A program made the translations under genes and the position numbers. DNA of 64,000 bases from the NCBI GenBank assembly GCA_964404855.1, contig CAYOLO010000001.1, positions 158,245-222,244 on the forward strand, given 5' to 3'. Below the pieces are notes generated by a model. The model searched no databases. It was not told the DNA's origin and was given only the letters and a program-made list of their open reading frames with translations. Positions 28,903 to 42,200 of the stretch are shown piece after piece. Source of the DNA: an uncultured Gammaproteobacteria bacterium. Lineage in GTDB: Bacteria > Patescibacteriota > Microgenomatia > CAYQLK01. Within the stretch, counting starts at the first letter, position 1, and the number at the start of each line of letters is the position of its first letter.

Positions 28903-28992
28903 TGGCGGAGAGAGGGGGATTCGAACCCCCGATACGCTTACGCGTAAACCTGCTTTCCAAGCAAGCGCCATAGGCCTCTAGGCGACCTCTCC
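28903..28992 (-). tRNA. tRNA-Ser (anticodon GGA), class II long variable arm, CCA encoded
   Basis: Revcomp GGAGAGGTCGCCTAGAGGCCTATGGCGCTTGCTTGGAAAGCAGGTTTACGCGTAAGCGTATCGGGGGTTCGAATCCCCCTCTCTCCGCCA. Acceptor 7 bp, anticodon stem CTTGC/GCAGG with loop TTGGAAA, long variable arm, T-loop TTCGAAT. Confidence 0.85.
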
Positions 28993-29065
28993 AAGTGTGG
29001 TATTTTAGCAGAGGCTAATGCAAACCTGAACCACCAGATAAAATTGAGCTGATATAATCTAATTT

Positions 29066-29677
29066 ATGCCCACCAAGTCCAAGCCAAAAACAAAAAAAGG
29101 CGACCAACTACTCAAAAAAGCATTTAGTATTCCCGATTATCAAAATTTAGACAGGAACCTGACCAAAGAAGAAATCTTAGCTCTCAAATCCGATGTCATA
29201 AAAAGTAAATCTTTACTTAGTTGGCGAGCATATTCTCGTGTCTACAAAAAGCGGACAAAAATGTATTACATAAATATCGCAATAATCGTATTTTTGCTTG
29301 GCCTAATAGCTATAACGATTCAAGAGCCAATTGTTGCGATGCTGATTCTTTCACTGGGATTTGTAGCTTATGTTTTGGCATATATTGAACCTCCAATTGT
29401 GGAGAATAGAATTACAAGATTAGGAATAGTTAATGGGGGTAGTGCTTTCTTGTGGGCTGAGTTAGGTAGTTTTTGGTTTTCCCAAAGAAATAAACAGACA
29501 ATTCTTAATATCACTCAAAACAAACTCAGGCCTGCGCTAGTTATGATTATTGAAGATAAAGAGAGGCAAAAAATAATTAATATTTTGTCAGAACAATTAG
29601 AGTATCGAAGAGACTATAAAGGTTTTATTGTCGATAAAATGGCAGATACGCTTGTTGAAAAAGTTCCTTTAGAGTAA
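29066..29677 (+). CDS. Two-TM membrane protein, hypothetical
   Basis: 203 aa. TATAAT-like box gatataatc ~10 nt upstream. Hydrophobic helices at aa ~68–105. Confidence 0.45.
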   Translation: MPTKSKPKTKKGDQLLKKAFSIPDYQNLDRNLTKEEILALKSDVIKSKSLLSWRAYSRVYKKRTKMYYINIAIIVFLLGLIAITIQEPIVAMLILSLGFVAYVLAYIEPPIVENRITRLGIVNGGSAFLWAELGSFWFSQRNKQTILNITQNKLRPALVMIIEDKERQKIINILSEQLEYRRDYKGFIVDKMADTLVEKVPLE

Positions 29678-29788
29678 AATTCCCCTCGTTCTTTTGGAAT
29701 CAAGCGCTCGTAGCTCAGTTTAGGAAATCAGCAGAATAAATTCCCTGATATCCACTGAACTACAAACGGTCAAAATTAAAATTTGTTC

Positions 29789-29861
29789 GCGCTCGTAGCT
29801 CAGTGGATAGAGTATCAGATTGCGGATCTGAGGGTCGCAGGTTCGAATCCTGCCGGGCGCA
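29789..29861 (+). tRNA. tRNA-Arg (anticodon GCG), CCA not encoded
   Basis: GCGCTCG-TA-GCTC-AGTGGATA-GAGT-A-TCAGA-TTGCGGA-TCTGA-GGGTC-GCAGG-TTCGAAT-CCTGC-CGGGCGC-A. Perfect 5-bp anticodon stem, loop TTGCGGA (U33, G34-C35-G36). Confidence 0.75.
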
Positions 29862-29948
29862 CACAGTTTAATACAACAGGAGGGGTCGCATAAGAACCTC
29901 AAGTTAAAACTTGAGAACCTTGCTCGACTCTTTCAACGGAATAAATAA

Positions 29949-30038
29949 GGAGGGGTCGCATAGTGGACTAGTGCGGTCGTCTTGAAAACGACTAAGGGTT
30001 TACGCCCTTCGAGAGTTCGAATCTCTCCCCCTCCGCCA
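29949..30038 (+). tRNA. tRNA-Ser (anticodon TGA), CCA encoded; attachment site of the downstream integrated element
   Basis: GGAGGGGTCGCATAGTGGACTAGTGCGGTCGTCTTGAAAACGACTAAGGGTTTACGCCCTTCGAGAGTTCGAATCTCTCCCCCTCCGCCA. Anticodon stem GTCGT/ACGAC, loop CTTGAAA, long variable arm. Confidence 0.85.
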
Positions 30039-31535
30039 AGTTTTACATTCAGCGAAATTGAAAGATGTTGCCTCGGCGCAAAGCGCCTCGGCATGGTATT
30101 TTTCCGCTATTTTGAAGGCATTTTTGAAATCCAAAACCAAAGTGCGGTCGGCAATGCGGAAGTTCGAACCAATCTTTTTGAGAAAATCCCGAATCCTTTC
30201 GGGATTTTCTTGTTGAGCGTATTTTTCGGCTTGGTTGGCGTCTTTTAGAAAGGCAATGGCAAGTTCGAACCGATTATTGCTCTTTCGCCCAAAAGCATGG
30301 ATTTTTTCTTCCAAATCTTTTTTAGCGAGAATGAGCTTGTACTTTTTAGCGGTATATTCCGCTTGCGACAAATTGCCGTCCAGTTGTAAATCAAGCAAGC
30401 GATCAAGTTTTGTTTCTATCTCTACAAGCTCATTTCTCGCTTTTTGGGCGAAAGAGCTTTCCGCTTGGGCAATTTTAATTTTTTCGTTTTCGAAAAAATT
30501 GATTGATGCGTTTGCCCAAGCGGAAGACAAAGAAACTTTTTTGATTTCTTCTTTTATTTGAAAAGTGATGGCGTCCTCTCTCGCATACCTTTGCGAACAA
30601 GGATTTTTCCGTTTGGTACATCGCAAATAATTATGCCCTTTTTGCGTTTCGGTGGTAATGAAACAGCCACACTCTCCGCAACGGAAAAATCCTCTATACA
30701 CATAAGGTTTGAGTTTTGGCGATTTCGGTTTGCTTTTGTTCGCCATCACTTCTTGGCATAAATCAAAAAGTTTCTTTGTGATAATCGGTTCGTGCTTTCC
30801 GTCATACAATTCGCCGTTGTACTCAATCATTCCATAATAGATTTTGTTTTTCAGCATATACTGATAATTTGAGACGGAAAGCATTTTGCCTTTCTTGCCA
30901 ACCAAGCCCAAGGAATTGATAATCTTTCGGATTTGAGCGAGGGGGTATTCGCCAGTTGCGTACATTTCAAAAGCCCGCTTGATATATTTTGCTTTTTCTT
31001 TGTCCACGGCAATACAGCGGGCGTTTTTGTCGTTTATATAGCCCAATGGCGCCCAAGCGGGCCATATTCCATTTCGCAATTTCTGGCGAATACCCCTCTT
31101 TATATTTTCCGAAAGATTATCCACATAATATTTTGATTGCCCAAAAGCAATGGACAACATAAATTTTCCCTGCGGTGTCGGATCAAACCAAAAAGTTGGA
31201 AATTTTAGCGTGGTAATTTTTCCAGTATCCACCAAGTAAATTATTCGTCCGCCGTCTATGGAATTACGAGCAAGGCGGTCAGGGTGCCACGCTAAAATTC
31301 CTTCGGCTTCATTTTTCTCTATGCTTGCCACCATTTCGTTAAAAATCTCTCTGCCCGGCTCTTTGGCGGTTTTGCTTTCCACAAATTCACTGACGATATT
31401 TAATCCTTCCTTTTTGGCATATTCTCGCAATTCAAACATTTGTGCCTCAATACTCAAAACCTGCCTTTCGGGTTCGTCCGTGGATTTACGGGCATAGAGA
31501 AAAATCTTTTTGGTTTGTAAATTTATGTTGTCCAT
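30000..31535 (-). CDS. Large serine recombinase (resolvase/invertase catalytic domain + recombinase domain + zinc ribbon + coiled coil)
   Basis: 511 aa. N-terminal catalytic motif IFLYARKSTDEPERQVLSIEAQ (YxRxST...Q with nucleophile Ser). Zinc ribbon CGECGCF...CTKRK, then C-terminal coiled coil. Last 13 codons overlap the 3' end of tRNA-Ser(TGA) on the opposite strand. Confidence 0.85.
   Translation of the reverse strand: MDNINLQTKKIFLYARKSTDEPERQVLSIEAQMFELREYAKKEGLNIVSEFVESKTAKEPGREIFNEMVASIEKNEAEGILAWHPDRLARNSIDGGRIIYLVDTGKITTLKFPTFWFDPTPQGKFMLSIAFGQSKYYVDNLSENIKRGIRQKLRNGIWPAWAPLGYINDKNARCIAVDKEKAKYIKRAFEMYATGEYPLAQIRKIINSLGLVGKKGKMLSVSNYQYMLKNKIYYGMIEYNGELYDGKHEPIITKKLFDLCQEVMANKSKPKSPKLKPYVYRGFFRCGECGCFITTETQKGHNYLRCTKRKNPCSQRYAREDAITFQIKEEIKKVSLSSAWANASINFFENEKIKIAQAESSFAQKARNELVEIETKLDRLLDLQLDGNLSQAEYTAKKYKLILAKKDLEEKIHAFGRKSNNRFELAIAFLKDANQAEKYAQQENPERIRDFLKKIGSNFRIADRTLVLDFKNAFKIAEKYHAEALCAEATSFNFAECKTWRRGRDSNSRRA
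30033..30228. repeat. IR-1a: inverted-repeat copy overlapping the recombinase 3' coding end (partner 31568–31783)
   Basis: Revcomp of 30039–30170 is identical to 31648–31783. Further shared blocks (aaaagattggttcg; gaaaaatacgctcaac) extend it to ~30228. Contains hairpin aaaatcccgaa-tcct-ttcgggatttt (30183–30208). Confidence 0.8.
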
Positions 31536-31567
31536 ATTGTTTTGAAATTAGTTTTTGGGCAATCAAA

Positions 31568-31783
31568 GAAAAATACGCTCAACCTTTCGCCAAAGGCGAA
31601 AGAAAAAAGATTGGTTCGCAAAATTTCATTTTGCCAGAGCTTCGCTCTGCGAACTTCCGCATTGCCGACCGCACTTTGGTTTTGGATTTCAAAAATGCCT
31701 TCAAAATAGCGGAAAAATACCATGCCGAGGCGCTTTGCGCCGAGGCAACATCTTTCAATTTCGCTGAATGTAAAACTTGGCGG
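31568..31783. repeat. IR-1b: inverted copy of the recombinase 3' end located just upstream of the recombinase start
   Basis: Encodes in the + frame ...NFRIADRTLVLDFKNAFKIAEKYHAEALCAEATSFNFAECKTWR, identical to the recombinase C-terminus. Carries a 33-nt insertion (31615–31647). A different hairpin ctttcgcc-aaa-ggcgaaag sits at the position of the IR-1a hairpin. Confidence 0.8.
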
Positions 31784-32120
31784 TGTTTTTTGGACGAAGT
31801 TCGAACATTTTTTGAGCAAAACCCCCAATAAGGAAGCCAGCCCCGCCGTCGCTCGGAAACCTCGCCACCCCGCAAAAAAGTTTTCTTCACATTTTTTGAT
31901 TTGCGCGCGCCGGATTTTTTCTTCTAAAAGGAAAAGAAAACTTTTTTGCGGGGTTCTGCTCTTAACGAGCAGGACGGCGGAGCTGTCCGCTTTTTGTATT
32001 CGCTCGGGCGTGGCGGAATTCCCCCCAAACCCCCCTTCCGCCACGCCCTCGCGGGGACGATTCTTTTTTTCGGCGGAATTTGAGGCTGTATTTTGCAAAG
32101 CAAAATGCGCCACCAAAAGG
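31778..32120. repeat. IR-2a: GC-rich palindrome-dense repeat (inverted partner 37643–37985)
   Basis: ~310 nt essentially identical to the revcomp of 37674–37985. Contains an 18-bp perfect inverted repeat CCCCGCAAAAAAGTTTTC (31868–31885) / GAAAACTTTTTTGCGGGG (31936–31953). Also a 13-bp perfect inverted repeat GGGCGTGGCGGAA (32006–32018) / TTCCGCCACGCCC (32036–32048). Long ORFs on both strands are artefacts of GC-rich palindromes. Confidence 0.8.
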
Positions 32121-32280
32121 GATGTTGCACTTGACCCACCCAACCCATTCGCGGGCAACGTTAAGGAACTCCCTAAAGATTCATTTACAAAATTGTTTAA
32201 ATTAGTTATCATTATAGTATCAAGAAAGAAACCTTTATATTATATTCTATATACTATAATGTTATATAATTAGAAAAGAT

Positions 32281-32484
32281 ATGTCAAATAATAAAATTGC
32301 TGAAAACTTAAAGAAACTACGGGCTAAAAAAGGGCTTTCCCTTGAGAAAATAGCTCGCCTTGCCGATTTATCCCTTAACACTATTGTTAAGGTTGAAAAC
32401 GGAGTAAATACAAACCCAACAATTGAAACACTAACTAAGATCGCCAAGGCGCTTGAGGTTGGCGTTGATGATTTAATAAAGTAA
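32281..32484 (+). CDS. XRE-family HTH regulator; probable R-M controller (C) protein
   Basis: 67 aa: KLRAKKGLSLEKIARLADLSLNTIVKVENGVNTNPTIETLTKIAKALEV is a canonical XRE helix-turn-helix. Size and position directly upstream of a DNA methyltransferase match C proteins. Confidence 0.65.
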   Translation: MSNNKIAENLKKLRAKKGLSLEKIARLADLSLNTIVKVENGVNTNPTIETLTKIAKALEVGVDDLIK

Positions 32485-32486
32485 TT

Positions 32487-33269
32487 ATGCCAATTTTTAA
32501 TGATTTAAATTTAGATAGTTGGAAAGAATCAGAAATTTTAACTGATAGCCTTTGGATTATTCCCGAAAGAGATAAAACAGGAAAACATAATGGCTTTTAT
32601 CACGGCAATTTTATTCCGCAAATTCCACACCAGTTGATTTTGAGATATACAAAGAAAAATGAAATTGTTTTTGATCCATTTTTAGGAAGTGGGACAACCG
32701 CCTATGAAGCGGAAAGTCTAAACAGAAATTTTATCGGCGTAGATATCCAAAAAAAGCTTGTTGATTATGTCGGTAAAAATATTGAGCCAAAAAATAATTT
32801 CTCTGATTTGATTGTTGGCGATAGCACAAAAATTGAAACTTTTGAAAAAGTAAAAGAAGTTTTAAAAAATCACAAAAAGAAAAATATTCAATTGGCAATT
32901 TTGCACCCGCCATATGCCGACATAATTAAATTTAGTGATTTAAAAGATGATTTATCAAATGCCAAATCTCTAAAAGAATTTTTAGGGAAATTTGCAGAGG
33001 TTTTAAAAAATACAATTGATATTTTAGAAAATGGTAGATATTTAGCAATTGTCATCGGCGATAAATACACAGCTGGCAAATGGATACCTTTGGGATTTTA
33101 TTGTATGAATGAAGCGCAAAAATTAGGATTGACACTAAAAAGTATTATAATTAAGAATATGGCGGGCAATCGCGCCAAACAAAACAAAGAAAGGATTTGG
33201 CGATACAGGGCGCTTTCAAGCGATTATTATATTTTTAAACACGAATATATTTTAATTTTCAAAAAATAA
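32487..33269 (+). CDS. DNA methyltransferase, beta-class N6-adenine/N4-cytosine (motif I before motif IV)
   Basis: FDPFLGSGTTAYEAESLNRNFIGVDI (AdoMet motif I, ParB-Mtase/N6_N4_Mtase type) and ILHPPYADII (motif IV (D/S)PPY). Confidence 0.8.
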   Translation: MPIFNDLNLDSWKESEILTDSLWIIPERDKTGKHNGFYHGNFIPQIPHQLILRYTKKNEIVFDPFLGSGTTAYEAESLNRNFIGVDIQKKLVDYVGKNIEPKNNFSDLIVGDSTKIETFEKVKEVLKNHKKKNIQLAILHPPYADIIKFSDLKDDLSNAKSLKEFLGKFAEVLKNTIDILENGRYLAIVIGDKYTAGKWIPLGFYCMNEAQKLGLTLKSIIIKNMAGNRAKQNKERIWRYRALSSDYYIFKHEYILIFKK

Positions 33270-33271
33270 TT

Positions 33272-34171
33272 ATGGAATACATAAAATCAAAATTATCAGA
33301 CGATTTAGCGCGAAAAATTATCGGTAGTCAAGAAAAAGCAACCGAGTATTTGTTGCGATTAAACGAGATTAAGCCAATACATGCCTTAAAATTCAAAACC
33401 ATTAGCCGTGGACAAAATGCGGGTAAAAAAGTTTTAGTTTTAGAAACAAAGGAACTTTGGAAAGCCGTTGTTGATAGCTGGGATTATGAGGAAAGCAAAA
33501 AGATAATCAGAGATATTTTCAAACAGACCGAAAAATACAAAAGCGGAAAAGAAGCTGACAATGCAATGGATGTGCTTATCAAAGAATGGCAATCGTTGAA
33601 ATTGGGCGATATTGCATGGCCATTTTCGCAGGGCGCTTTTGACGAGTTTGTGCAACGAGTAAATTCTGAAAAAGAAAACGGATTTGTTAAAGATGAAAAA
33701 GTGAAAGTCGCTGCGGTAAAATATAGGCGAATAAAAGAAATAAACACTGTTAGGAATGATTTTATAGAAACATTGATTTTTGAAAAAAATAACAATATTT
33801 TGCCGACATTAAATCATAGACGAGGTGTTGATTTTTTTATCAATGGAGTTTCTTTTGATCAAAAAGTCGCAAAAAGTCCGACAAATGAATTTAAAAGGCA
33901 CTTTAAAGATGAGTGGCGAGAAGTGGCAATCAAAAAACCTGAACTTGTCGCAGAATATCTCTACAAATTCCAAGACGAAGGCAGATTTGGGGCAGACCCG
34001 AGATTATTGGTTGTTTATATTGATGAAGATGTTTCAATTGATAAAATAAGAGAGATAATAAACAAAACCGACTTAAATAATCCGGTTGAAATCAATTTCA
34101 CTTACAAACATAAAAATCTTGGTGAGAAAAATTATAAAGTGCCTTGTTTTGTAATCTTATTGCATAACTAA
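33272..34171 (+). CDS. Putative Type II restriction endonuclease (inferred from position between two MTases; candidate PD-(D/E)XK core)
   Basis: 299 aa, no MTase motifs. Candidate catalytic core ...RRGVDFFINGVSFDQKV (D...DQK). Assignment is contextual. Confidence 0.35.
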   Translation: MEYIKSKLSDDLARKIIGSQEKATEYLLRLNEIKPIHALKFKTISRGQNAGKKVLVLETKELWKAVVDSWDYEESKKIIRDIFKQTEKYKSGKEADNAMDVLIKEWQSLKLGDIAWPFSQGAFDEFVQRVNSEKENGFVKDEKVKVAAVKYRRIKEINTVRNDFIETLIFEKNNNILPTLNHRRGVDFFINGVSFDQKVAKSPTNEFKRHFKDEWREVAIKKPELVAEYLYKFQDEGRFGADPRLLVVYIDEDVSIDKIREIINKTDLNNPVEINFTYKHKNLGEKNYKVPCFVILLHN

Positions 34172-34175
34172 AATT

Positions 34176-35249
34176 ATGAATTATATCGGCAGTAAATTAT
34201 CATTATTGGAATTTTTAGAAGAATCAATTAATAAAGTAGTTGATAAAAACTGCGATACTTTTTGTGATTTATTTGCGGGAACTGGAATTGTTGGAAGTTA
34301 TTTTAAAAGAAAGGGTTATAAAATAATCGCTAATGATATTCAATATTACAGCTATGTTTTAAATAGGCACTATATAGGAAATCACAAAGAATTAAATTTT
34401 GCAAAACTAACAAAAGAAATCCCCAATTTAAAAAGTATTGATGTAAAAAATAGGAAAAATTTTGTTTGCAATTATTTATCAGATTTAAAAGGTGTAAAAG
34501 GATTTATTTATAAAAATTATTGTCTTGGAGGATCAAAAGATCAGACAGAACCACGACAATATTTTTCCGATGAAAACGGAATGCGTTGCGATGCTATCCG
34601 TCAAAAAATTGAAAACTGGAAAGAGCAAAGTTTAATTTCTAATGACGAATATTATTTTTTGATTACAAGTTTAGTTGAGTCAATTGATAAATACGCAAAT
34701 ACGGCTTCCGTATATGGTGCTTTTCTGAAAAAACTAAAAAAGACAGCTCAAAATAATTTAATTTTAAAACCCGCTGAATTGATAATAAACGACCAAGACC
34801 ACGAAGTTTTTAACGAAGATATAAATAAAGTAGCAGGAAAAATTAAAGGCGATATTTTGTATTTAGATCCACCATATAATCAAAGACAATACGCGACAAA
34901 TTATCATATGCTTGAAACTATCGCAAAATATGATAATCCTGAAATTCATGGAAAAACTGGTTTGCGCGAATATCAAAATCAAAAGTCCCTTTATTGTTCA
35001 AGGACACAAGTAAAAAAAGCATTTAAGGATTTGATTTTGAAAGCAAAAGCAAAATATATCTTTTTAAGCTATAACAACGAGGGTTTAATGACTTTAGGCG
35101 ATATTCAAGAAATAATGAGCTTACGGGGCAAATACGGTAATTTTACGAAAGAATATAATCGTTTTAAGGCGGATAAGTCAGAAAACAGAAACTATACTGC
35201 GAATAAAACTGTTGAGTATTTGCATTATGTAGTTTGTGAAAAAGCATAA
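34176..35249 (+). CDS. Dam-family (D12 class, alpha-type) N6-adenine DNA methyltransferase
   Basis: N-terminal NYIGSKLSLLEFL...FCDLFAGTGIVG (D12-class motif X/I) and DILYLDPPYNQRQYATNYH (motif IV DPPY). Confidence 0.8.
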   Translation: MNYIGSKLSLLEFLEESINKVVDKNCDTFCDLFAGTGIVGSYFKRKGYKIIANDIQYYSYVLNRHYIGNHKELNFAKLTKEIPNLKSIDVKNRKNFVCNYLSDLKGVKGFIYKNYCLGGSKDQTEPRQYFSDENGMRCDAIRQKIENWKEQSLISNDEYYFLITSLVESIDKYANTASVYGAFLKKLKKTAQNNLILKPAELIINDQDHEVFNEDINKVAGKIKGDILYLDPPYNQRQYATNYHMLETIAKYDNPEIHGKTGLREYQNQKSLYCSRTQVKKAFKDLILKAKAKYIFLSYNNEGLMTLGDIQEIMSLRGKYGNFTKEYNRFKADKSENRNYTANKTVEYLHYVVCEKA

Positions 35250-35266
35250 ACTATAAGCTATGAAAT

Positions 35267-37642
35267 ATGAAAATCCGAAAAATACAAACTATAAAAAATT
35301 ACAAATCCTTTTCGGATTTTTCTTGGGATAAATTTTGTAAAAATTGTTCCAATAACGAACAAACACTCTCTAATTACAATGTAATCTTTGGAGAAAATGG
35401 CTCTGGGAAGTCATCAATTTGTGATATTCTGAAAAATCTTTCGCAAATTCAAAATTTTCCAAACACTTCACCCGATCTCGCGGAAATAGAAATAAAAAAT
35501 GGAAGTAATCAAGTTTATAAATTTGAAAATGGAAGTTGGACACCAAACCAGTTAAATAAAAATTCCTTTTTATTTTTTGATGTCGATTTTATTAGTGCCA
35601 ATGTTCACACGCATGGCGAACGGTCAAATCAACAAGGCAGACATTCACAAAATTCAGGGAAAATGATTATTGATTTAGACGATAAGGCAAATCAGCTAAA
35701 AATCGTTGTAAAAGAAAAGAAAGAGGAATCGGATAATTTTGACAAAATTAATGCCGATATTTTAAACAAAAATTTTACCGATAAAGACAAAGAGCTTTCC
35801 GCTATTTACAAAGATAAAAGCGAACAAGAAATAAAGGATGAAATTTCAAAAAAACAGGAAGAAGCCAAAAAAATTGAGTTGGATTTATCAGCATTACAAA
35901 AGATAAACAAAAAATATTCGGAAATAAGTCAGTTACCCATTATCAATCAGCTTTCTTTCTCTTCTTCAATATCCACAAAAGAAATCTACTCGGAATTAGT
36001 TTTGAGACAGTTAAAGGAAAAAGCGCAAGATCAGGCGGACGAAAAAATAAAAGCACATTTTGAAAAACACAAAAGATTTATTGAGACAGCCAAGGATCAA
36101 ATACCGAAGGATTATCAAAAATCCGATTGTCCGTTGTGTATGCAACCCCTCGCTAATGCTTCAAAATTTATTGAATATTATAGGATTGCTTTTGATCAAA
36201 CATATGAAAACGAGAAAAGAAAATTTTTAACGGACATACAGAATTTAAAAAGTGAATTGGAAACCTTAAAATCCTCAATAAGTCTTTTACCGACAAAAGT
36301 GCTTGGAATTTTTAATTCTTTAGAAAAAATCAAAACTGATTTTGAAATTCAGGATATTTATAAACTCGAAGAAAAAACGGAATATACCGAAAAATTTAGT
36401 AAAATTTCTATCGCTCAAATAGACGAGCTTATTTTGAATTTAGAAGCGCTGAAAAGTATTGAGCGAAAAGAAATAAAACTTTCAGAAACTTATGACAAAA
36501 TAACAGACGGAGTGAAAGAAATAGCAAGTAAAATTAATGATTTTAATAAAATAATTGACGACAAAAACAAGGTCATTTCTGCGTTCAAGGGTAAATATTC
36601 TGATCAAAATAAAATTACTAACGAAATTCAGGAAAAAACTAAAAATCAAGCAGAGCTTCAAGAAACAACCCAGTTTTTAATAAATGACAAAATTCAGTCA
36701 ATCAAAAATCAAAACGCGGCGGTTCTAAAACAAAAAGCTTTGGCTGAAGTATTGAAAAAAGCTCAAGAAGATTTGAAAAATCATCTCGCCAATAGCATAC
36801 CAGAAAGCGTTATTATAAAAATGATTGATATTTTAGGAAAGTTTAATTTAAGTTTTACGCTTGAACATATCAAACCAGCACCAAACACGAAGGACTATTC
36901 TTTTTCATTTAAAATTAAAGATCAAAAAGGGCATGAGAGAGATTTTAAAGATGGGCTTTCAGAGGGCGAGCGACAGTTGATTTCCTTGGCTTTTTTCTTT
37001 TCTATCAATGAAAGTTTGTTGGACAAATCAAATATAGTTTTGATTTTTGATGACCCAATAACCAGTTTAGATTCGCCAAATTTGAAAATACTTGCCGACT
37101 TGATTCACGAAAAAACACAGGAATTTTCGCAAGTAATTATTTTTACTCATCACCCTTTATTTTATAAATATGTGGCTAAATGCGAAAATCCTAATCCGTG
37201 CAAATTTGGCGTTTTGAAAAATCATGACGCTTTTGGTGGTAGTTTTATTTTCTTTGATCCCGGATTTGATTTAACGGCAGAAATGCAAAAGTGCAATGAG
37301 GAAATAAAACAGAACGCACAAAGCGGAAATTTAAAACCCGAAGAAATTGCCTTGAAATACGGACAACTTTTGCGTCTTGCCGTTGAAAAATTTATCAAGC
37401 ACGAATTATTGATGTGGAATAAAGAAAGTAATTTTGAAAAAGAAATAATAGCAAATTTATCAAAAAGCAAAAGTAAAATTCAAAAACTAGATGACAGTGA
37501 TTTGGAAATAATGACAAACATTCATAAATACTGCAATCATTCAAACCTTTTACATGCGGATAAAGAAAATCCGTCGGCACTTTCGGAACTGATGACACAT
37601 ATTGATAAATTTGTTATTATTCAAGATAAGGTAAATCTGTAA
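35267..37642 (+). CDS. RloC-like protein: Rad50/SMC-type split ABC ATPase with coiled-coil CxxC zinc hook and C-terminal candidate anticodon-nuclease domain
   Basis: 791 aa. Walker A GENGSGKSSICDIL near the N-terminus. ~450 aa of coiled coil with central hook DYQKSDCPLCMQPL. Signature/Q-like SEGERQLISLAFFF, Walker B/D-loop VLIFDDPITSLD, H-loop IIFTHH. C-terminal ~150 aa contains R-x3-E (RLAVE) followed by His-containing segment HKYCNHSNLLH, reminiscent of the PrrC/RloC nuclease triad. Confidence 0.5.
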   Translation: MKIRKIQTIKNYKSFSDFSWDKFCKNCSNNEQTLSNYNVIFGENGSGKSSICDILKNLSQIQNFPNTSPDLAEIEIKNGSNQVYKFENGSWTPNQLNKNSFLFFDVDFISANVHTHGERSNQQGRHSQNSGKMIIDLDDKANQLKIVVKEKKEESDNFDKINADILNKNFTDKDKELSAIYKDKSEQEIKDEISKKQEEAKKIELDLSALQKINKKYSEISQLPIINQLSFSSSISTKEIYSELVLRQLKEKAQDQADEKIKAHFEKHKRFIETAKDQIPKDYQKSDCPLCMQPLANASKFIEYYRIAFDQTYENEKRKFLTDIQNLKSELETLKSSISLLPTKVLGIFNSLEKIKTDFEIQDIYKLEEKTEYTEKFSKISIAQIDELILNLEALKSIERKEIKLSETYDKITDGVKEIASKINDFNKIIDDKNKVISAFKGKYSDQNKITNEIQEKTKNQAELQETTQFLINDKIQSIKNQNAAVLKQKALAEVLKKAQEDLKNHLANSIPESVIIKMIDILGKFNLSFTLEHIKPAPNTKDYSFSFKIKDQKGHERDFKDGLSEGERQLISLAFFFSINESLLDKSNIVLIFDDPITSLDSPNLKILADLIHEKTQEFSQVIIFTHHPLFYKYVAKCENPNPCKFGVLKNHDAFGGSFIFFDPGFDLTAEMQKCNEEIKQNAQSGNLKPEEIALKYGQLLRLAVEKFIKHELLMWNKESNFEKEIIANLSKSKSKIQKLDDSDLEIMTNIHKYCNHSNLLHADKENPSALSELMTHIDKFVIIQDKVNL

Positions 37643-37985
37643 ATTTTTGGTGGCGCGCCAGTTTTCAACTGGCACAGCCTCAAATTCCGCCGAAAAAAAG
37701 AATCGTCCCCGCGAGGGCGTGGCGGAAGGGGGGTTTGGGGGGAATTCCGCCACGCCCGAGCGAATACAAAAAGCGGACAGCTCCGCCGTCCTGCTCGTTA
37801 AGAGCAGAACCCCGCAAAAAAGTTTTCTTTTCCTTTTAGAAGAAAAAATCCGGCGCGCGCAAATCAAAAAATGTGAAGAAAACTTTTTTGCGGGGTGGCG
37901 AGGTTTCCGAGCGACGGCGGGGCTGGCTTCCTTATTGGGGGTTTTGCTCAAAAAATGTTCGAACTTCGTCCAAAAAACACCGCCA
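37643..37985. repeat. IR-2b: GC-rich palindrome-dense repeat (inverted partner of 31778–32120), ending in CCGCCA
   Basis: See IR-2a. Contains the same 18-bp and 13-bp perfect internal palindromes in mirrored order. Ends ...CCAAAAAACACCGCCA|GGG at 37985. Confidence 0.8.
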
Positions 37986-38096
37986 GGGTTTTTGTTCGGT
38001 GTACAATTAATTTGTTATGTATTTTGGGCAAAAAGTAGTTGGATTTAATCAATTTTCATTTAATAAATTTTTAATAGAGGGGCGGTGAGTAGGTAA

Positions 38097-38519
38097 ATGT
38101 TTGCAACAGAAATAAACTATTTAGCAATGGTTGTAGCAGGTCTTGCGACTTATGCAATTGGAGCGTTGTGGTACTCACCTGTTCTTTTTATGAACGAATG
38201 GATGAAGGTAGCTGGCTTGGATAAAAAGAAAAATGCCAAAGTTGCTCAATCGCAGATGGTTCGAATGTACACTTTAGGGTTAATAGCTAATATGATCGCC
38301 GCTTTTGTTTTGGCAAGACTATTGGTCTGGACTAGAGCAGGGGATGATTTGGTTGGAGCTCTAAAAATCGGCGGTTGGTTGTGGCTCGGTTTTATAGCTG
38401 TTTGGATGATTAACAGCTGGTTGTACGAAAGCAAGCCAATTAAGTATTTTGTAATTAATTCTGGTTATGCCCTAGTAACTGTTCTTGTTGGAGCTGCGAT
38501 TCTTACGCTCTGGAGATAA
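38097..38519 (+). CDS. Small 3–4-TM membrane protein, hypothetical (DUF1761-like?)
   Basis: 140 aa. GALWYSPVLFMNEWMK motif and four hydrophobic helices. Confidence 0.4.
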   Translation: MFATEINYLAMVVAGLATYAIGALWYSPVLFMNEWMKVAGLDKKKNAKVAQSQMVRMYTLGLIANMIAAFVLARLLVWTRAGDDLVGALKIGGWLWLGFIAVWMINSWLYESKPIKYFVINSGYALVTVLVGAAILTLWR

Positions 38520-38530
38520 GTTAGTTAAAA

Positions 38531-38566
38531 AAAGACAGGCAATGTTTTTGGTCAGCCTGTCTTTTT
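38531..38566. terminator. Bidirectional rho-independent terminator between convergent genes
   Basis: AAAAAAA-GACAGGC-aatgtttttggtc-AGCCTGTC-TTTTTGG: perfect 7–8 bp stem flanked by A-run and T-run. Confidence 0.6.
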
Positions 38567-39214
38567 GGTGTTTTGGCTAGTTTTTTGGACAATGAACCAG
38601 AGCCAGTTATTATTGTTGGTTTCGGAGGAGGTGAAATCGATTACAGAGAAGCCGTTTCTGGTTAAAATTTCAGTAAATTCCTCCTTAGCGTAAAAAGAAA
38701 AAAATCTGCTGAAGGTTTTGTTTTGGTCAGTAACTCTTGATTTTTCGACTTCTTGAACCTGTTCGCCTTTACCTTCTTTGAGGCTGATAAAACCAATCCC
38801 GTTAACTTTTATATATTTGTTTATTTGAGTTAAGGCGAGTTCGATTTTGTTTTTTGGAACATGTAGTAAAACGGCGCTTGCCCAGAACCCATCGAATTCT
38901 GTGCCTCGTGGGAAGCTGAGGTCGTAGACACTAAATGGAAAAAATTTCGAGTTGGGGAGGGATTTTTGACACATTTGAATAAAGGATTTAGTGATATCGG
39001 TGCCTGTGTAATCGTATCCTTCGTTAATTAATCTTTTGGCATCATGACCATTTCCACATCCTATTTCTAAAATGTTACCTTTGGATAAATATTTTTTAAA
39101 AAACTTAATTTCGTCATCCTGAAAAGTCAGATTAGTAGTTGGTTTGTGCCAACTGTCAGCATTCTGTTCGTAGTATTCGACGGTTAGTTTTTCTTTGTTG
39201 GTAAGTTTTTGCAT
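38552..39214 (-). CDS. Class I SAM-dependent methyltransferase
   Basis: 220 aa. Motif I ILEIGCGNGHDAKRL and motif II-like region. Small-molecule/RNA MTase fold. Confidence 0.75.
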   Translation of the reverse strand: MQKLTNKEKLTVEYYEQNADSWHKPTTNLTFQDDEIKFFKKYLSKGNILEIGCGNGHDAKRLINEGYDYTGTDITKSFIQMCQKSLPNSKFFPFSVYDLSFPRGTEFDGFWASAVLLHVPKNKIELALTQINKYIKVNGIGFISLKEGKGEQVQEVEKSRVTDQNKTFSRFFSFYAKEEFTEILTRNGFSVIDFTSSETNNNNWLWFIVQKTSQNTKKTG

Positions 39215-39232
39215 AAAAGTAAATAATAAATC

Positions 39233-39324
39233 TGGCGGAGGGGGAGAGATTCGAACTCTCGGAAAGGAAAAATCCCTTCAGCAGTTTTCGAAACTGCCGC
39301 ACTAGTCCACTATGCGACCCCTCC
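39233..39324 (-). tRNA. tRNA-Ser (anticodon CGA), CCA encoded
   Basis: Revcomp GGAGGGGTCGCATAGTGGACTAGTGCGGCAGTTTCGAAAACTGCTGAAGGGATTTTTCCTTTCCGAGAGTTCGAATCTCTCCCCCTCCGCCA. Acceptor, D and T arms identical to tRNA-Ser(TGA) at 29949. Anticodon stem GCAGT/ACTGC, loop TTCGAAA. Confidence 0.85.
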
Positions 39325-39455
39325 ACTGCTCCAAGGACAAACCATTGGTTTTTCCTTGGTATTTCTTTTCCTAAATTGGAAAACTTGTACTGGCAGAGCC
39401 AGACACAAGTCGAATTATAATAGTTTTTATGATTGTTGGTTTTGTCTGGTAATTA

Positions 39456-40226
39456 TTAAAGAGTAGAAAATTGCAGGCGGAGGAATTTTTCCCTGAAATC
39501 TTGCGAGTGAGCAAAAAGCAGCCTGACCTTTTGAGTGGAGTAACTGATTTGAGCTTTGGTGACATTGTTAATTTGCTGACCATCGGCCATAAAAGCAACT
39601 GGGCGTCTTTCTGTGTCGAGGGCTGTTAGTGTTACTACCGAGTTGTGTGATAACTGGGCACTGCGCCAGTTGTGAAAAAGCGCTGGACAGATACCTGTGA
39701 GAACCAAATGGCGACTATCGATTGGTAAAATTTTGCCACCAGCTGAGGCGTTGTAAGAGGTTGAGCCGGCAGGAGTTGCGACAATGGCACCATCGCAGAC
39801 TAGTTTTTCAAATCTGATTTTGTCATTGACAGCTATTTCTATTCGGCAAGTTTGAGGTGTAGCTCGTTCGAAATAAAAATCATTAAAGGCTAAGGTGGTG
39901 CGAAGTTTTTTGTTACTACTAAACAGTTCGGCTTTCAGCAGACGGTTTTCGACGGTGTCAAATTCGCCGCTGATTATTTCATCAACAACATCTTCTTTGG
40001 CTTCGTTAAGCAAAAATCCTAGATGACCAAAGTTAAAACCGACGAATGGAATGTGGAGTGGATAATATTTTTTAATAGCAGTAAGCATTGTGCCGTCGCC
40101 GCCGAGCACAAGAATAAAATCAGCTTTTTGGTCTGGTTCGACTATTTCGAGCTTGCTTTTTATTTTTTTAATCAATACTGAAGAGGCGGGTAAACCTTGT
40201 CGGGAAACAAGTATGGCTTTTAGCAT
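39456..40226 (-). CDS. nadK: NAD(+) kinase
   Basis: 256 aa. FILVLGGDGTML (GGDG motif) and DGAIVATPAGSTSYNASAGGKILP (NAD kinase DG..TP.GSTAYS.SAGGP motif). Confidence 0.9.
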   Translation of the reverse strand: MLKAILVSRQGLPASSVLIKKIKSKLEIVEPDQKADFILVLGGDGTMLTAIKKYYPLHIPFVGFNFGHLGFLLNEAKEDVVDEIISGEFDTVENRLLKAELFSSNKKLRTTLAFNDFYFERATPQTCRIEIAVNDKIRFEKLVCDGAIVATPAGSTSYNASAGGKILPIDSRHLVLTGICPALFHNWRSAQLSHNSVVTLTALDTERRPVAFMADGQQINNVTKAQISYSTQKVRLLFAHSQDFREKFLRLQFSTL

Positions 40227-40306
40227 ATGGATATTTTAGTACGAAATTAAGAAAAAAGCCGACTTACACTCTTATTTGGAAGTCGGCTTTTGTTGTTGAT
40301 GTTGAA

Positions 40307-40798
40307 CTACTTGAGCGCGGTAAGCGTTTTGACAGCTTCGCGCATGGCGACGTCGAGGTAGATGGAGATGTTGGGATCACCGTCGTGGGCGGTTCCTGGG
40401 CACGGAATGTTGAGCCATTCTTCCCAGCGAATGTAGCAGCCTTGTTTGGCAGAATCTGCTCCGTATTGGGCGAAAAGGAAGTGTGTTGCATCTTCCTCGC
40501 TCATTTCTGGAGTTGTGACGCCGAACGCCGCACGGAGGTCATCACTGGTGAGGATTGTTCGTCCGGTGGTTTTGGCACGAGGGGATTGGATGACTTCCCA
40601 GTCCACGAACCATCGGTCAGTGCTAAGCTCGTCAGTCTGGCTGACGGTGAGTTTGGCCGCACTTCCCAGGATGACGAGCAGTCGTTTGGCTGCGTCGAAA
40701 CTTTTGACGTGCATTTTGAACCCGTGATGGTGGAACCACACAGGACGACCCATCCTTAGTTCAGGTTGGGTTCTGGTCATGGTTGAGGTTTGTGACAA
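40307..40798 (-). CDS. Hypothetical protein in a locally GC-rich segment
   Basis: 163 aa, no TM. Coding region ~55% GC versus ~38–42% elsewhere. No motif recognised. Confidence 0.35.
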   Translation of the reverse strand: MSQTSTMTRTQPELRMGRPVWFHHHGFKMHVKSFDAAKRLLVILGSAAKLTVSQTDELSTDRWFVDWEVIQSPRAKTTGRTILTSDDLRAAFGVTTPEMSEEDATHFLFAQYGADSAKQGCYIRWEEWLNIPCPGTAHDGDPNISIYLDVAMREAVKTLTALK

Positions 40799-40901
40799 GC
40801 GTGACCGCCTTTGTCTGGTAGTTTTAGGGGTGCTGTTAGAGTGCGAGGCGGAGAATACACTTATTTTGAAGCTATGTCAATTGTTAATTAACCTATAATA
40901 T

Positions 40902-41360
40902 TTGATTTTTGAGGCTAAATTTGATATAATTAGGGTTGGTAGCACTTTTGACAGGGAGCTTATTGGTTTGAGTAGTGACAGTTTGATCCAGTTCGGTGTT
41001 TTGGATGTGGCTCACAGTGACCCAAGCAGGACGCTGTGTGAATGCAATCTTAACGATTGCTCGGTTCAAATCATCGATGTCGAGGTGGAGATTCCGCTTG
41101 CGAACCACTACCACAAACTCAAAGATGAGACGTTTGTTCTCGTCGAGGGAGGTGGAGTGTTCTACGGTGTGGCTGTTGACGAGTACGGCAATAGGCTGGG
41201 AGAAGTCCAAGCCAGGCAGCTACTTGAAGGCGCTGTCATCAAGGTTCCGGCTTTTTTCGCTCACACTTTCATCCTTAGGTCTGGCAGTCGGCTGGTTTGC
41301 TTTTCGAGTAAGCCGTTCAACCCAGAAAACACAGATTTGCATCCACTTCAGCTTGTCTGA
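40902..41360 (+). CDS. Cupin-fold protein, WxcM/FdtA C-terminal-domain-like (sugar ketoisomerase-type), hypothetical
   Basis: 152 aa. ...ANHYHKLKDETFVLVEGGGVFYGV... resembles the His-containing beta-strand motifs of WxcM-like cupins. Weak. Confidence 0.3.
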   Translation: MIFEAKFDIIRVGSTFDRELIGLSSDSLIQFGVLDVAHSDPSRTLCECNLNDCSVQIIDVEVEIPLANHYHKLKDETFVLVEGGGVFYGVAVDEYGNRLGEVQARQLLEGAVIKVPAFFAHTFILRSGSRLVCFSSKPFNPENTDLHPLQLV

Positions 41361-41411
41361 AGAAGTGTGTGCAAAAGTCCTTTGCCCTCGATTAATTTCG
41401 GGGGCATTTTT

Positions 41412-41882
41412 TTAGTTAAGAAATTTAATAGCAAGATTGAGTAGACTAGCGAACGATACCCAAGCGATATATGGGTAAAGAAGACGAGAGGCGAGAGGAG
41501 AAAAAGGAGCGAATTTTTTGATAGTTAGAAAGATAGTTATCCAGAGAATGAGTATCTCAAATAAAGCAAACAGCGGAGATTTTAGTCCAAAGAAAATAAT
41601 GGACCAGAGTGTGTTAAGTACAAGTTGAGTTGCAAAAATAGTGATTGGTACTCTCTTGTCTTTTTTGGTTTTTGCGACCAGAACTAAATACAGTGATACG
41701 CCCATTAGGATGTAGAGTGTTGTCCAGACTGGGGCAAAAATCCAGTTCGGTGGATTGAAGAATGGCTTGTTAAGGGTTGAATACCAGGTGGGGATTGACG
41801 AAGCGGTGAAGAAGGAGCCGATACCGCCAGCAGAAAGGGAAACTAGTATTGAGAATGTAAGTTTTGGCAGGTTTAATTTCAT
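41412..41882 (-). CDS. tspO: TspO/MBR family tryptophan-rich sensory protein
   Basis: IPTWYSTLNKPFFNPPNWIFAPVWTTLYILMGVSLYLV matches the TspO signature (WY..L.KP.f.PP.w.F.PvWt.LY.lMG.). Five TM helices. Start taken at MKLNLPKL. Confidence 0.8.
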   Translation of the reverse strand: MKLNLPKLTFSILVSLSAGGIGSFFTASSIPTWYSTLNKPFFNPPNWIFAPVWTTLYILMGVSLYLVLVAKTKKDKRVPITIFATQLVLNTLWSIIFFGLKSPLFALFEILILWITIFLTIKKFAPFSPLASRLLYPYIAWVSFASLLNLAIKFLN

Positions 41883-42079
41883 TTTTTTATTTGACTGTCC
41901 TGGTTGCAAGAAATCTGGCGGAGAGGGAGGGATTGGATTTTTAGTCCATTTACCTCAAAACTCGTAATTTATTTATAAAATTTTAACAAATTACTCGTTT
42001 TTCGTTACCGAACCCTTGTGGTGGTTCAAAACAACCTACCCTCATATTTTTCATTACTGCCAACGCAGTTACGAAAAAT

Positions 42080-42172
<93 letters not shown>

Positions 42173-42200
42173 CAGAGCTTGTATATTCTACCTGACTGGC

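Follow-up and report, generated by a model that had tools for sequence, protein, structure and literature searches.

We describe here a gene for an ATP-binding cassette (ABC) ATPase of 791 amino acids (aa) in a 64,000-nucleotide stretch of DNA, hereafter called the window (assembly GCA_964404855.1, contig CAYOLO010000001.1, positions 158,245 to 222,244 of the forward strand). Sequence comparison places the protein in the RloC / AAA_13 / PDC-S06 superfamily, as a member of a small, sharply defined mobile clade, and its gene closes a type II restriction-modification (R-M) operon, with which it is co-transcribed. We advise against listing the protein as an RloC orthologue, because it fails on two of the features tested for the canonical nuclease domain. 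We consider it somewhat more probable than not that the protein acts as an RloC-like, DNA-sensing backup guard with a non-canonical effector; an RNase chemistry of the C-terminal domain (C-domain) of this clade is a candidate only.

The open reading frame (ORF) starts with ATG at 35267 and ends with its stop codon at 37642 on the plus strand. It is a real gene and not a chance ORF, with a local GC content of 29–35% and homologues that are up to 94% identical. The following features were located (window positions, strand, residue numbers of the protein):

35267–37642, plus strand: complete ORF of an RloC-superfamily ABC ATPase, 791 aa (ORF list, Pfam, PADLOC and homologues)
35390–35413, plus strand: Walker A motif (P-loop), G42ENGSGKS49
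35672–36841, plus strand: helical (coiled-coil) insert dividing the ABC head, residues ~136–525 (predicted helices with confidence values of 80–90; matches to Rad50, SMC and LmuB)
36128–36139, plus strand: CPLC at residues 288–291, candidate zinc hook, at the residue number of CGFC in a canonical control
36956–36970, plus strand: ABC signature L564SEGE568 (motif reading; aligns with the Rad50 signature region)
37037–37072, plus strand: Walker B VLIFDD (591–596) and D-loop SLD (600–602), together V591LIFDDPITSLD602 (motif reading; aligns with Rad50)
37148–37153, plus strand: H-loop, H628-H629 (motif reading and conservation)
37187–37639, plus strand: C-domain, residues 641–791, a beta-hairpin and five helices; candidate effector, divergent HEPN-like or anticodon nuclease-like
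37373–37387, plus strand: R703-L-A-V-E707, predicted equivalent of PrrC R320/E324 and GkaRloC R692/E696 (invariance and profile-offset estimates)
37532–37567, plus strand: C756-N757-x-S-N-L-L-H763-A-D-K766-E767, conserved His motif with Cys-Asn at the site of the HEPN/PrrC Arg (alignment, and comparison with CRYIASH of L056 and R349/N352/H356 of PrrC)

Conservation was read from an alignment of the window ATPase with 51 homologues of 58–94% identity. Invariant in this alignment are G42, G45, G47, K48, S49, C288, P289, C291 and S565 to Q570, likewise D595, D596, H628, H629, R703 and E707, and H763 is the sole invariant His downstream of E707. An earlier note on this DNA, made from the letters alone, had pointed out the ORF, the split ABC head, the CPLC hook and an R-x3-E...H region, and all of these were seen, the motif residues being invariant among the homologues. 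Its description of a split head is likewise borne out, with the difference that the signature follows Walker A after about 520 aa and not after about 550 aa.

The insert between the two halves of the head is helical and about 390 aa long. The AlphaFold2 (AF2) model of the whole protein has a mean predicted local distance difference test score (pLDDT) of 73 and features long, confident helices at residues 139–274 and 298–523, which are separated by a low-confidence break that contains CPLC. The CxxC motif at residues 288–291 is a candidate zinc hook, as judged from its sequence. By fold, the PDB entries that match best are heads with coiled coils, namely those of Rad50 (Chaetomium MRN complex, E = 3e-8), SMC proteins and Lamassu LmuB; Rad50 of Chaetomium thermophilum is the top PDB match by sequence as well as by fold.

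Head, coil and hook place the protein in its superfamily. Pfam AAA_13 (PF13166), the model against which the earlier note had proposed to check the protein, matched with 102.5 bits (cut-off 36). In PADLOC, 13 PDC-S06 models matched with a top score of 98 bits, making PDC-S06 the best PADLOC family. On the same B. cereus proteins, PDC-S06 in PADLOC corresponds to RloC in DefenseFinder (PMC11811056, supplementary file 6). Some clade members carry the JGI annotation 'wobble nucleotide-excising tRNase'. For calibration, canonical RloC-type proteins from plasmids and genomes were used as controls. One of them, a Chryseobacterium plasmid protein of 785 aa (L013), features CGFC at residue 288, MRKFLEAY and NRVINEYSH, the last of which has the R-x2-N-x3-H spacing of R349/N352/H356 in PrrC. 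The second, from B. cereus (L012), features MRRILENYF...WINDGSH, with the His-motif stretch RSLISWINDGSH. AAA_13 covers both controls end to end (positions 1–712; 494 and 606 bits), and the PADLOC PrrC model recognises them as well (E 1e-12 to 1e-15). Residues 3–643 of the window ATPase align to the canonical RloC-type plasmid protein from Chryseobacterium in tblastn (E = 8e-9), and the hook starts at residue 288 in both. By these alignments, head, coil and hook of the window ATPase are homologous to those of the canonical RloC-type controls.

A further ATPase of PDC-S06 type (858 aa) is encoded on the Shewanella xiamenensis plasmid pHD6416-NDM (L009, 14367–16943). The style of its C-domain, HAYGLMRETYERLVEEWLL...KCSTYMCGHD, is the nearest to this clade, and its gene is located directly upstream of a gene annotated as anti-phage sirtuin Dsr1 on this NDM plasmid.

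With Rad50/SbcC the protein shares its head fold, a long insert of helices and a CxxC hook, and it could in principle be a Rad50/SbcC repair ATPase or another ABC defence ATPase that works with a separate effector, as in Lamassu (LmuB), PARIS (AriA), Septu (PtuA) or AbiL. In line with this, weak PADLOC matches to LmuB, AriA, AbiLi, PtuA and mad3, a Rad50_Sulf match of 59 bits and the Rad50 and LmuB folds were obtained. These scores are far below those of PDC-S06 and AAA_13 and below the curated cut-offs, however. The NCBIfam scan of the ATPase yielded nothing near its cut-offs (Rad50 models with 59 and 23 bits versus 1000 and 700), and SMC_N reached 30.7 bits, below its cut-off of 40. No Mre11/SbcD, LmuA, AriB or PtuB gene was found beside the ATPase gene here or in 14 related contexts, and neither the operon nor the related loci contain a phosphoesterase gene; the extra C-domain is absent from Rad50/SbcC. 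In view of such scores, and as partner genes are missing, we rejected both Rad50/SbcC proper and the other ABC defence ATPases and regard this explanation as very improbable. Best homology to SbcC/Rad50 proper, which the earlier note had named among the outcomes that would contradict its assignment, was accordingly not observed.

The C-domain sets the clade apart. Across the wider clade its motifs are [YF]-G-[QH]-x-L-R-x3-E and Y-x-[FY]-C-N-x4-5-H. Two further residues, H753 and H758, were considered as the His of a triad, as they fall within the published spacing window, yet they were rejected as both are Tyr in most homologues. Of the 151 columns of the C-domain, 40 are invariant; its mean majority fraction of 0.82 lies between those of the N-terminal (0.78) and C-terminal (0.88) halves of the ABC head. 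This conservation is that of a domain under strong constraint and not of a decaying remnant. An exhaustive HMMER search with a C-domain profile found 62 representatives among 1.84 billion proteins; all are about 775–843 aa in length or fragments, and none is of PrrC size.

The nearest characterised systems include RloC and PrrC. Like RloC (GkaRloC, AbaRloC; COG4694), the window protein is about 800 aa long, matches AAA_13 and has an ABC head divided by a hook-bearing (CxxC) coiled coil and, fused to it, a helical C-terminal domain with R-x3-E and a later His; RloC, too, is carried on mobile elements, sometimes beside R-M genes. The hook at residues 288–291 of this clade can be set beside the zinc-hook mutant C291G of GkaRloC (PMC2610378). 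Like PrrC (EcoPrrC of E. coli), it joins an ABC NTPase to a C-terminal nuclease-type domain with R-x3-E-K (R320...E324-K325 in PrrC, R703...E707-K708 here) and a later His; PrrC, too, is tied to R-M, and one clade member (P0112) is placed between hsdM and hsdS in the manner of prrC. PrrC, in contrast, has 396 aa, lacks a coiled coil and hook and accompanies type I systems only, whereas the window protein has 791 aa and belongs to a type II cassette.

An orthodox RloC orthologue, i.e. a wobble-nucleotide-excising tRNA anticodon nuclease with the Arg-Glu-His triad of GkaRloC, would explain why all three items of the orthologue screen (ABC motifs, CXXC and R-x3-E...H) are present, as well as the JGI labels and the AAA_13 and PDC-S06 matches. 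The RloC triad is defined as Arg-X3-Glu-X36-52-His, often with Ser before the His (PMC2610378). In the window ATPase the distance from Glu to His is 55 residues (53–55 across the wider clade), which is outside this range, and the residue preceding H763 is Leu. PrrC requires R349 and N352, both of which are conserved in RloC, and its R349 mutants to Ala, Lys and Gln are all inactive (PMC3025547). At the equivalent positions this clade carries C756-N757 and S759, and H295, which is essential in PrrC together with R349 and N352 (PMC3025547), is likewise without a counterpart here. Of the Arg-Glu-His triad that the earlier note had proposed to verify by alignment, R703, E707 and H763 are present and invariant, at a spacing outside the published one. 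Profiles that cover the canonical nuclease domain, namely the C-terminal region of AAA_13 and the PrrC model, fail on the window C-domain but recognise both controls. What stood of the claim of a defining RloC architecture is the head, the coil, the hook and the extra domain with R-x3-E...H, while the match to an anticodon nuclease did not. With R703, E707 and H763 kept but Cys-Asn in place of the HEPN arginine, the active site is non-canonical, and a tRNA substrate and wobble excision are candidates only. Taken together, we consider the orthodox RloC explanation unlikely.

Several observations weigh not only against an orthodox RloC but also against the RloC-like guard that we favour. Searched alone, the C-domain matched zero Pfam families, even at E = 10, and the scan of the whole ATPase gave no match to PADLOC PrrC at E <= 0.01. 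The AAA_13 alignment covers profile positions 9–592 of 713 only, leaving the nuclease region (~593–713) unmatched. The His motif of the clade, Y-C-N-x-[SG]-[NG]-x-x-H, has no Arg within 10 residues upstream of H763. When aligned with 22 canonical C-domains by hhalign, the motifs were co-linear, but the alignment was not significant (P ~0.1). The AF2 model of the C-domain, a beta-hairpin with five helices, is of moderate confidence (pLDDT 70), with values below 50 in the H763 loop, and the PDB search of the C-domain gave no match by sequence profile and none by fold at E < 1e-3.

Other comparisons point to a common origin with the RloC/PrrC nuclease domain. Estimated by offset from alignment ends, the AAA_13 position is about 643 for the Arg of clade member P0205, compared to 641–645 for the canonical triad Arg; in the same way, the Arg of P0205 and that of an Erwinia protein both fall at about position 697 of PDLC04895. 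A metagenomic subgroup (L052, L056, L061, L062 and L064) reads LRGLCE...x52...A-C-R-Y-I-A-S-H-S, with the HEPN R-x4-H directly behind the same Cys. Alignment of the clade C-domain profile with this CRYIASH subgroup by hhalign covered 152 columns with P = 0.007, which is suggestive only; with Erwinia/Pantoea C-domains the P value was 0.42 and with the Shewanella-type C-domain 0.05. To judge from its sequence, the R-x4-H subgroup may bridge this clade and the classical HEPN nucleases. By sequence, neither RloC nor PrrC was found in the PDB. HEPN domains make up about half of the 50 best Foldseek matches of the C-domain model among PDB structures, all with E >= 0.07 and TM scores of 0.33–0.46. 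On this evidence, the C-domain appears to be derived from the same module as the RloC/PrrC nuclease domain.

The members of the R-x4-H subgroup (L052, L055, L056, L061, L062 and L064) are hook-bearing AAA_13 proteins of about 780–1030 aa, L055 being truncated (571 aa). Their C-domain reads ...GYEELRGLCEIVVEHE...x52...FEKACRYIASHSQP, with the canonical R-x4-H beside the same Cys.

The likeness to HEPN RNases (HepT, Csm6, Cas13, RnlA and the ABC-HEPN fusions; Anantharaman et al. 2013) extends to an all-alpha C-terminal module on an ABC ATPase, the R-M neighbourhood, a conserved His at a helix junction and the enrichment of HEPN structures among the weak fold matches. HEPN domains are built on a four-helix up-down core with the signature Rx4-6H; in this clade the signature is replaced by C-N-x4-5-H, and no fold match is statistically significant. 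The loss of the HEPN arginine could mean that the C-domain is not an enzyme but a regulatory or docking domain, the whole protein being an SMC/Rad50-like, DNA-tethering R-M accessory that holds or scans DNA or controls restriction alleviation. A non-catalytic role has been proposed for HEPN domains that lack the motif (Anantharaman et al. 2013), and the Rad50/SMC-like head would also fit, as would the tight coupling in operons with R-M genes, whose stop codons in some cases overlap the start codon of the ATPase gene. The polar residues R703, E707, N757, H763, K766 and E767 are invariant and resemble an active site, however. A near-identical C-domain on ATPases of 60–94% identity beside unrelated R-M partners argues against docking to a specific partner, and some members occur alone or in conjugative or integrase contexts. 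A non-enzymatic C-domain is thus, in our estimate, rather improbable.

The RloC-like guard with a non-canonical effector is further based on the linkage of the clade to R-M systems. Homologues of 59–94% identity were found in metagenome-assembled genomes labelled Patescibacteria, Deltaproteobacteria, Elusimicrobiota, Brocadiaceae, Firestonebacteria and, with one member, Thermoproteota (archaea). A pattern scan for the clade in IMG/VR viral contigs found no relative. In about 11 of about 14 distinct contexts an R-M system ends with the ATPase gene, which abuts or overlaps the preceding gene. The contexts are as follows:

L001 and L002: cassette as in the window
L036: HinfI-family system; ATPase 94% identical to that of the window
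L038: DpnII-family system with serine recombinase and tRNA-Ser(UGA)
L039: AlwI system
L040: NgoFVII/PLD system
L004: two N4/N6 methyltransferases and uncharacterised ORFs, with serine recombinase
L007: EcoRI-type methylase and GmrSD-HNH protein
L042: MutH/Sau3AI-like endonuclease and C5 methylase
L044: MmeI-family enzyme
P0112: type I locus with the ATPase gene between hsdM and hsdS
L046: partial match, with similarity to a D12-class methyltransferase upstream
Three contexts without R-M genes: gene alone (L006 and L037); conjugative-transfer genes (L041); adjoining tyrosine integrase (L043)

The type II cassettes with the ATPase mostly contain two methyltransferases, one of D12 class and one short N4/N6 enzyme (DpnA-like), as in the window, L001, L036, L038, L039 and L040; in four loci the N4/N6 gene is immediately upstream of the ATPase gene. 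The R-M partners are 25–45% identical to each other, while the ATPases are 60–94% identical. That the ATPase is not tied to one particular R-M partner is easier to reconcile with an internal, RloC-type switch than with the PrrC-type silencing by a specific partner.

Among RloC genes, only 8 of 72 mapped to R-M loci (PMC2610378), i.e. about 11%, compared to about 75–80% of the contexts of this clade. This difference in linkage, together with the tie of the C-domain to only 62 representatives, none of them PrrC-sized, is a further point against an orthodox RloC. The clade also differs from RloC in being tight, with 60–94% identity across phyla, in having R-M partners that are mostly type II with two methyltransferases, and in carrying Cys-Asn in place of the Arg of R-x2-N-x3-H or Rx4-6H. 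A more far-reaching interpretation is that the effector is a new type that arose from the RloC/PrrC HEPN-like nuclease. It would combine Cys-Asn-x5-His with R-x3-E in a rebuilt active site that lacks the HEPN arginine, have a different substrate or control (thiol/redox control, a modified RNase or a non-RNA target) and serve as a universal, partner-independent guard of R-M systems of types I, IIP, IIS and IIL that spreads across phyla, including the Candidate Phyla Radiation (CPR). We regard this interpretation as possible but doubtful.

For the favoured RloC-like guard, a mechanism can be proposed by analogy. Wobble-nucleotide excision and switching by the zinc hook and a DNA-dependent ATPase are known biochemically only for GkaRloC and AbaRloC, in which the nuclease is under the control of these two elements and becomes active upon double-strand breaks. 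In analogy to them, the window ATPase may act as a self-contained second line of defence or as an addiction module for the R-M cassette. In cells whose restriction is overwhelmed or whose cassette has been lost, hook and ATPase would sense DNA, either its ends or DNA that is unprotected. The heads would then dimerise, driven by ATP, which would pair two C-domains and switch on a toxic activity, as in the dimerisation model for PrrC (PMC3025547). This activity would most likely be that of a metal-independent RNase against tRNA, halting translation.

In the window, the ATPase gene is the last of five co-directional genes with intergenic gaps of 1–17 nucleotides (nt). The four genes that precede it are:

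32281–32484, plus strand: helix-turn-helix (HTH) controller (C) protein, 67 aa, at the head of the operon (sequence read; HTH_3 equivalents of 55–67 aa precede the cassettes in L001, L036 and L040)
32487–33269, plus strand: N4/N6 DNA methyltransferase, 260 aa (PF01555, 97.8 bits; PADLOC MTase_II, 327 bits)
33272–34171, plus strand: ORF without family match, 299 aa, candidate restriction endonuclease flanked by the two methyltransferases
34176–35249, plus strand: D12-class (Dam-like) N6-adenine DNA methyltransferase, 357 aa (PF02086, 180.7 bits; PADLOC MTase_II, 378 bits)

Scans of the 299-aa ORF against Pfam, PADLOC and NCBIfam yielded nothing. Its identity to the counterpart in L001 is 69%, compared to about 90% for the flanking methyltransferases and the ATPase. 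It is likely a restriction endonuclease of an undescribed family that evolves faster than its neighbours.

The operon is located on a mobile island that adjoins a tRNA gene and features the following elements:

29949–30038, plus strand: tRNA-Ser(UGA), integration target; the left boundary of the island is just after ...CCGCCA
30000–31535, minus strand: large serine recombinase, 511 aa, with Resolvase, Recombinase and Zn_ribbon_recom domains
31650–32089, no strand assigned: internal inverted copy of the expected circle junction, 134-nt A' followed by 318-nt B
37674–37991, no strand assigned: right-end segment B', 318 nt, ending ...CACCGCCA, 78% conserved downstream of the homologous ATPase gene in L001–L003

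The stop codon of the recombinase falls within the tRNA-Ser(UGA) gene. At 90% identity the recombinase belongs to a cluster of 444 members, of which the named ones are Patescibacteria. The adjacency to an R-M cassette, the mobile island and the CPR-like host, all proposed in the earlier note, are therefore supported by the two methyltransferases upstream, the serine recombinase at tRNA-Ser(UGA) and the Patescibacteria recombinase cluster.

The right end of the island is at ...CACCGCCA (37985), and the same end is present in the related locus L001. Related cassettes also adjoin tRNA-Ser(UGA) in L001 (4321–10704), L002 and L038 (1798–8379); the cassette of L038 comes with a serine recombinase, while those of L001 and L002 are without one. 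The latter two are flanked by a 47-nt inverted repeat with a ...GGCGG/CCGCC core and end at the same ...CACCGCCA boundary as the island in the window. Segment B' (37674–37991; 10403–10701 in L001) is G + C-rich and follows the stop codon of the ATPase gene. Its most conserved part comprises the last ~70 nt before CCGCCA, which, by this conservation, probably form a recombinase attachment arm. B' was also considered as a structured RNA. It folds strongly (z = -4.4 versus shuffled sequences), but the hairpin arms are not kept in L001 and no Rfam match was found, and this candidate was rejected.

The reverse complement of 31650–32089 consists of the last 318 nt of the island, CCGCCA and the first 134 nt after the left end (30033–30166), with identities of 99% and 100%, respectively. 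A partial recombinase C-terminus with the alternative ending ...CKTWRCFLDEVRTFFEQNPQ is encoded in it. As to its origin, this inverted junction may be a second copy that was rearranged, the product of a recombinase-mediated inversion or cassette exchange, or a mis-assembly. An assembly artefact was considered for the inverted repeats and, from the sequence alone, is a possible cause; L001, however, has a short inverted repeat in the two corresponding places, independently of the window.

Four tRNA-Ser genes (GGA, UGA, CGA and GCU) and a tRNA-Arg cluster are located within 13 kb around the island (28903–42173). The short inverted repeats named I3 and I4 are two of these tRNA-Ser paralogues.

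The textbook examples of a backup to restriction that kills translation are RloC and PrrC, and to our knowledge only two RloC proteins have been studied. The clade described here retains R-x3-E and the His without the arginine that PrrC cannot lack, and thereby offers a natural test of which residues make the active site. Its link to R-M systems is tighter and more general than that of RloC, in that an ATPase which hardly changes serves many restriction enzymes unrelated to each other, and through this linkage the idea of a guard of restriction becomes directly testable. The window adds a case in which a small serine-recombinase island carries such a module, and does so in a CPR genome that is reduced and for which defence genes come at a cost.

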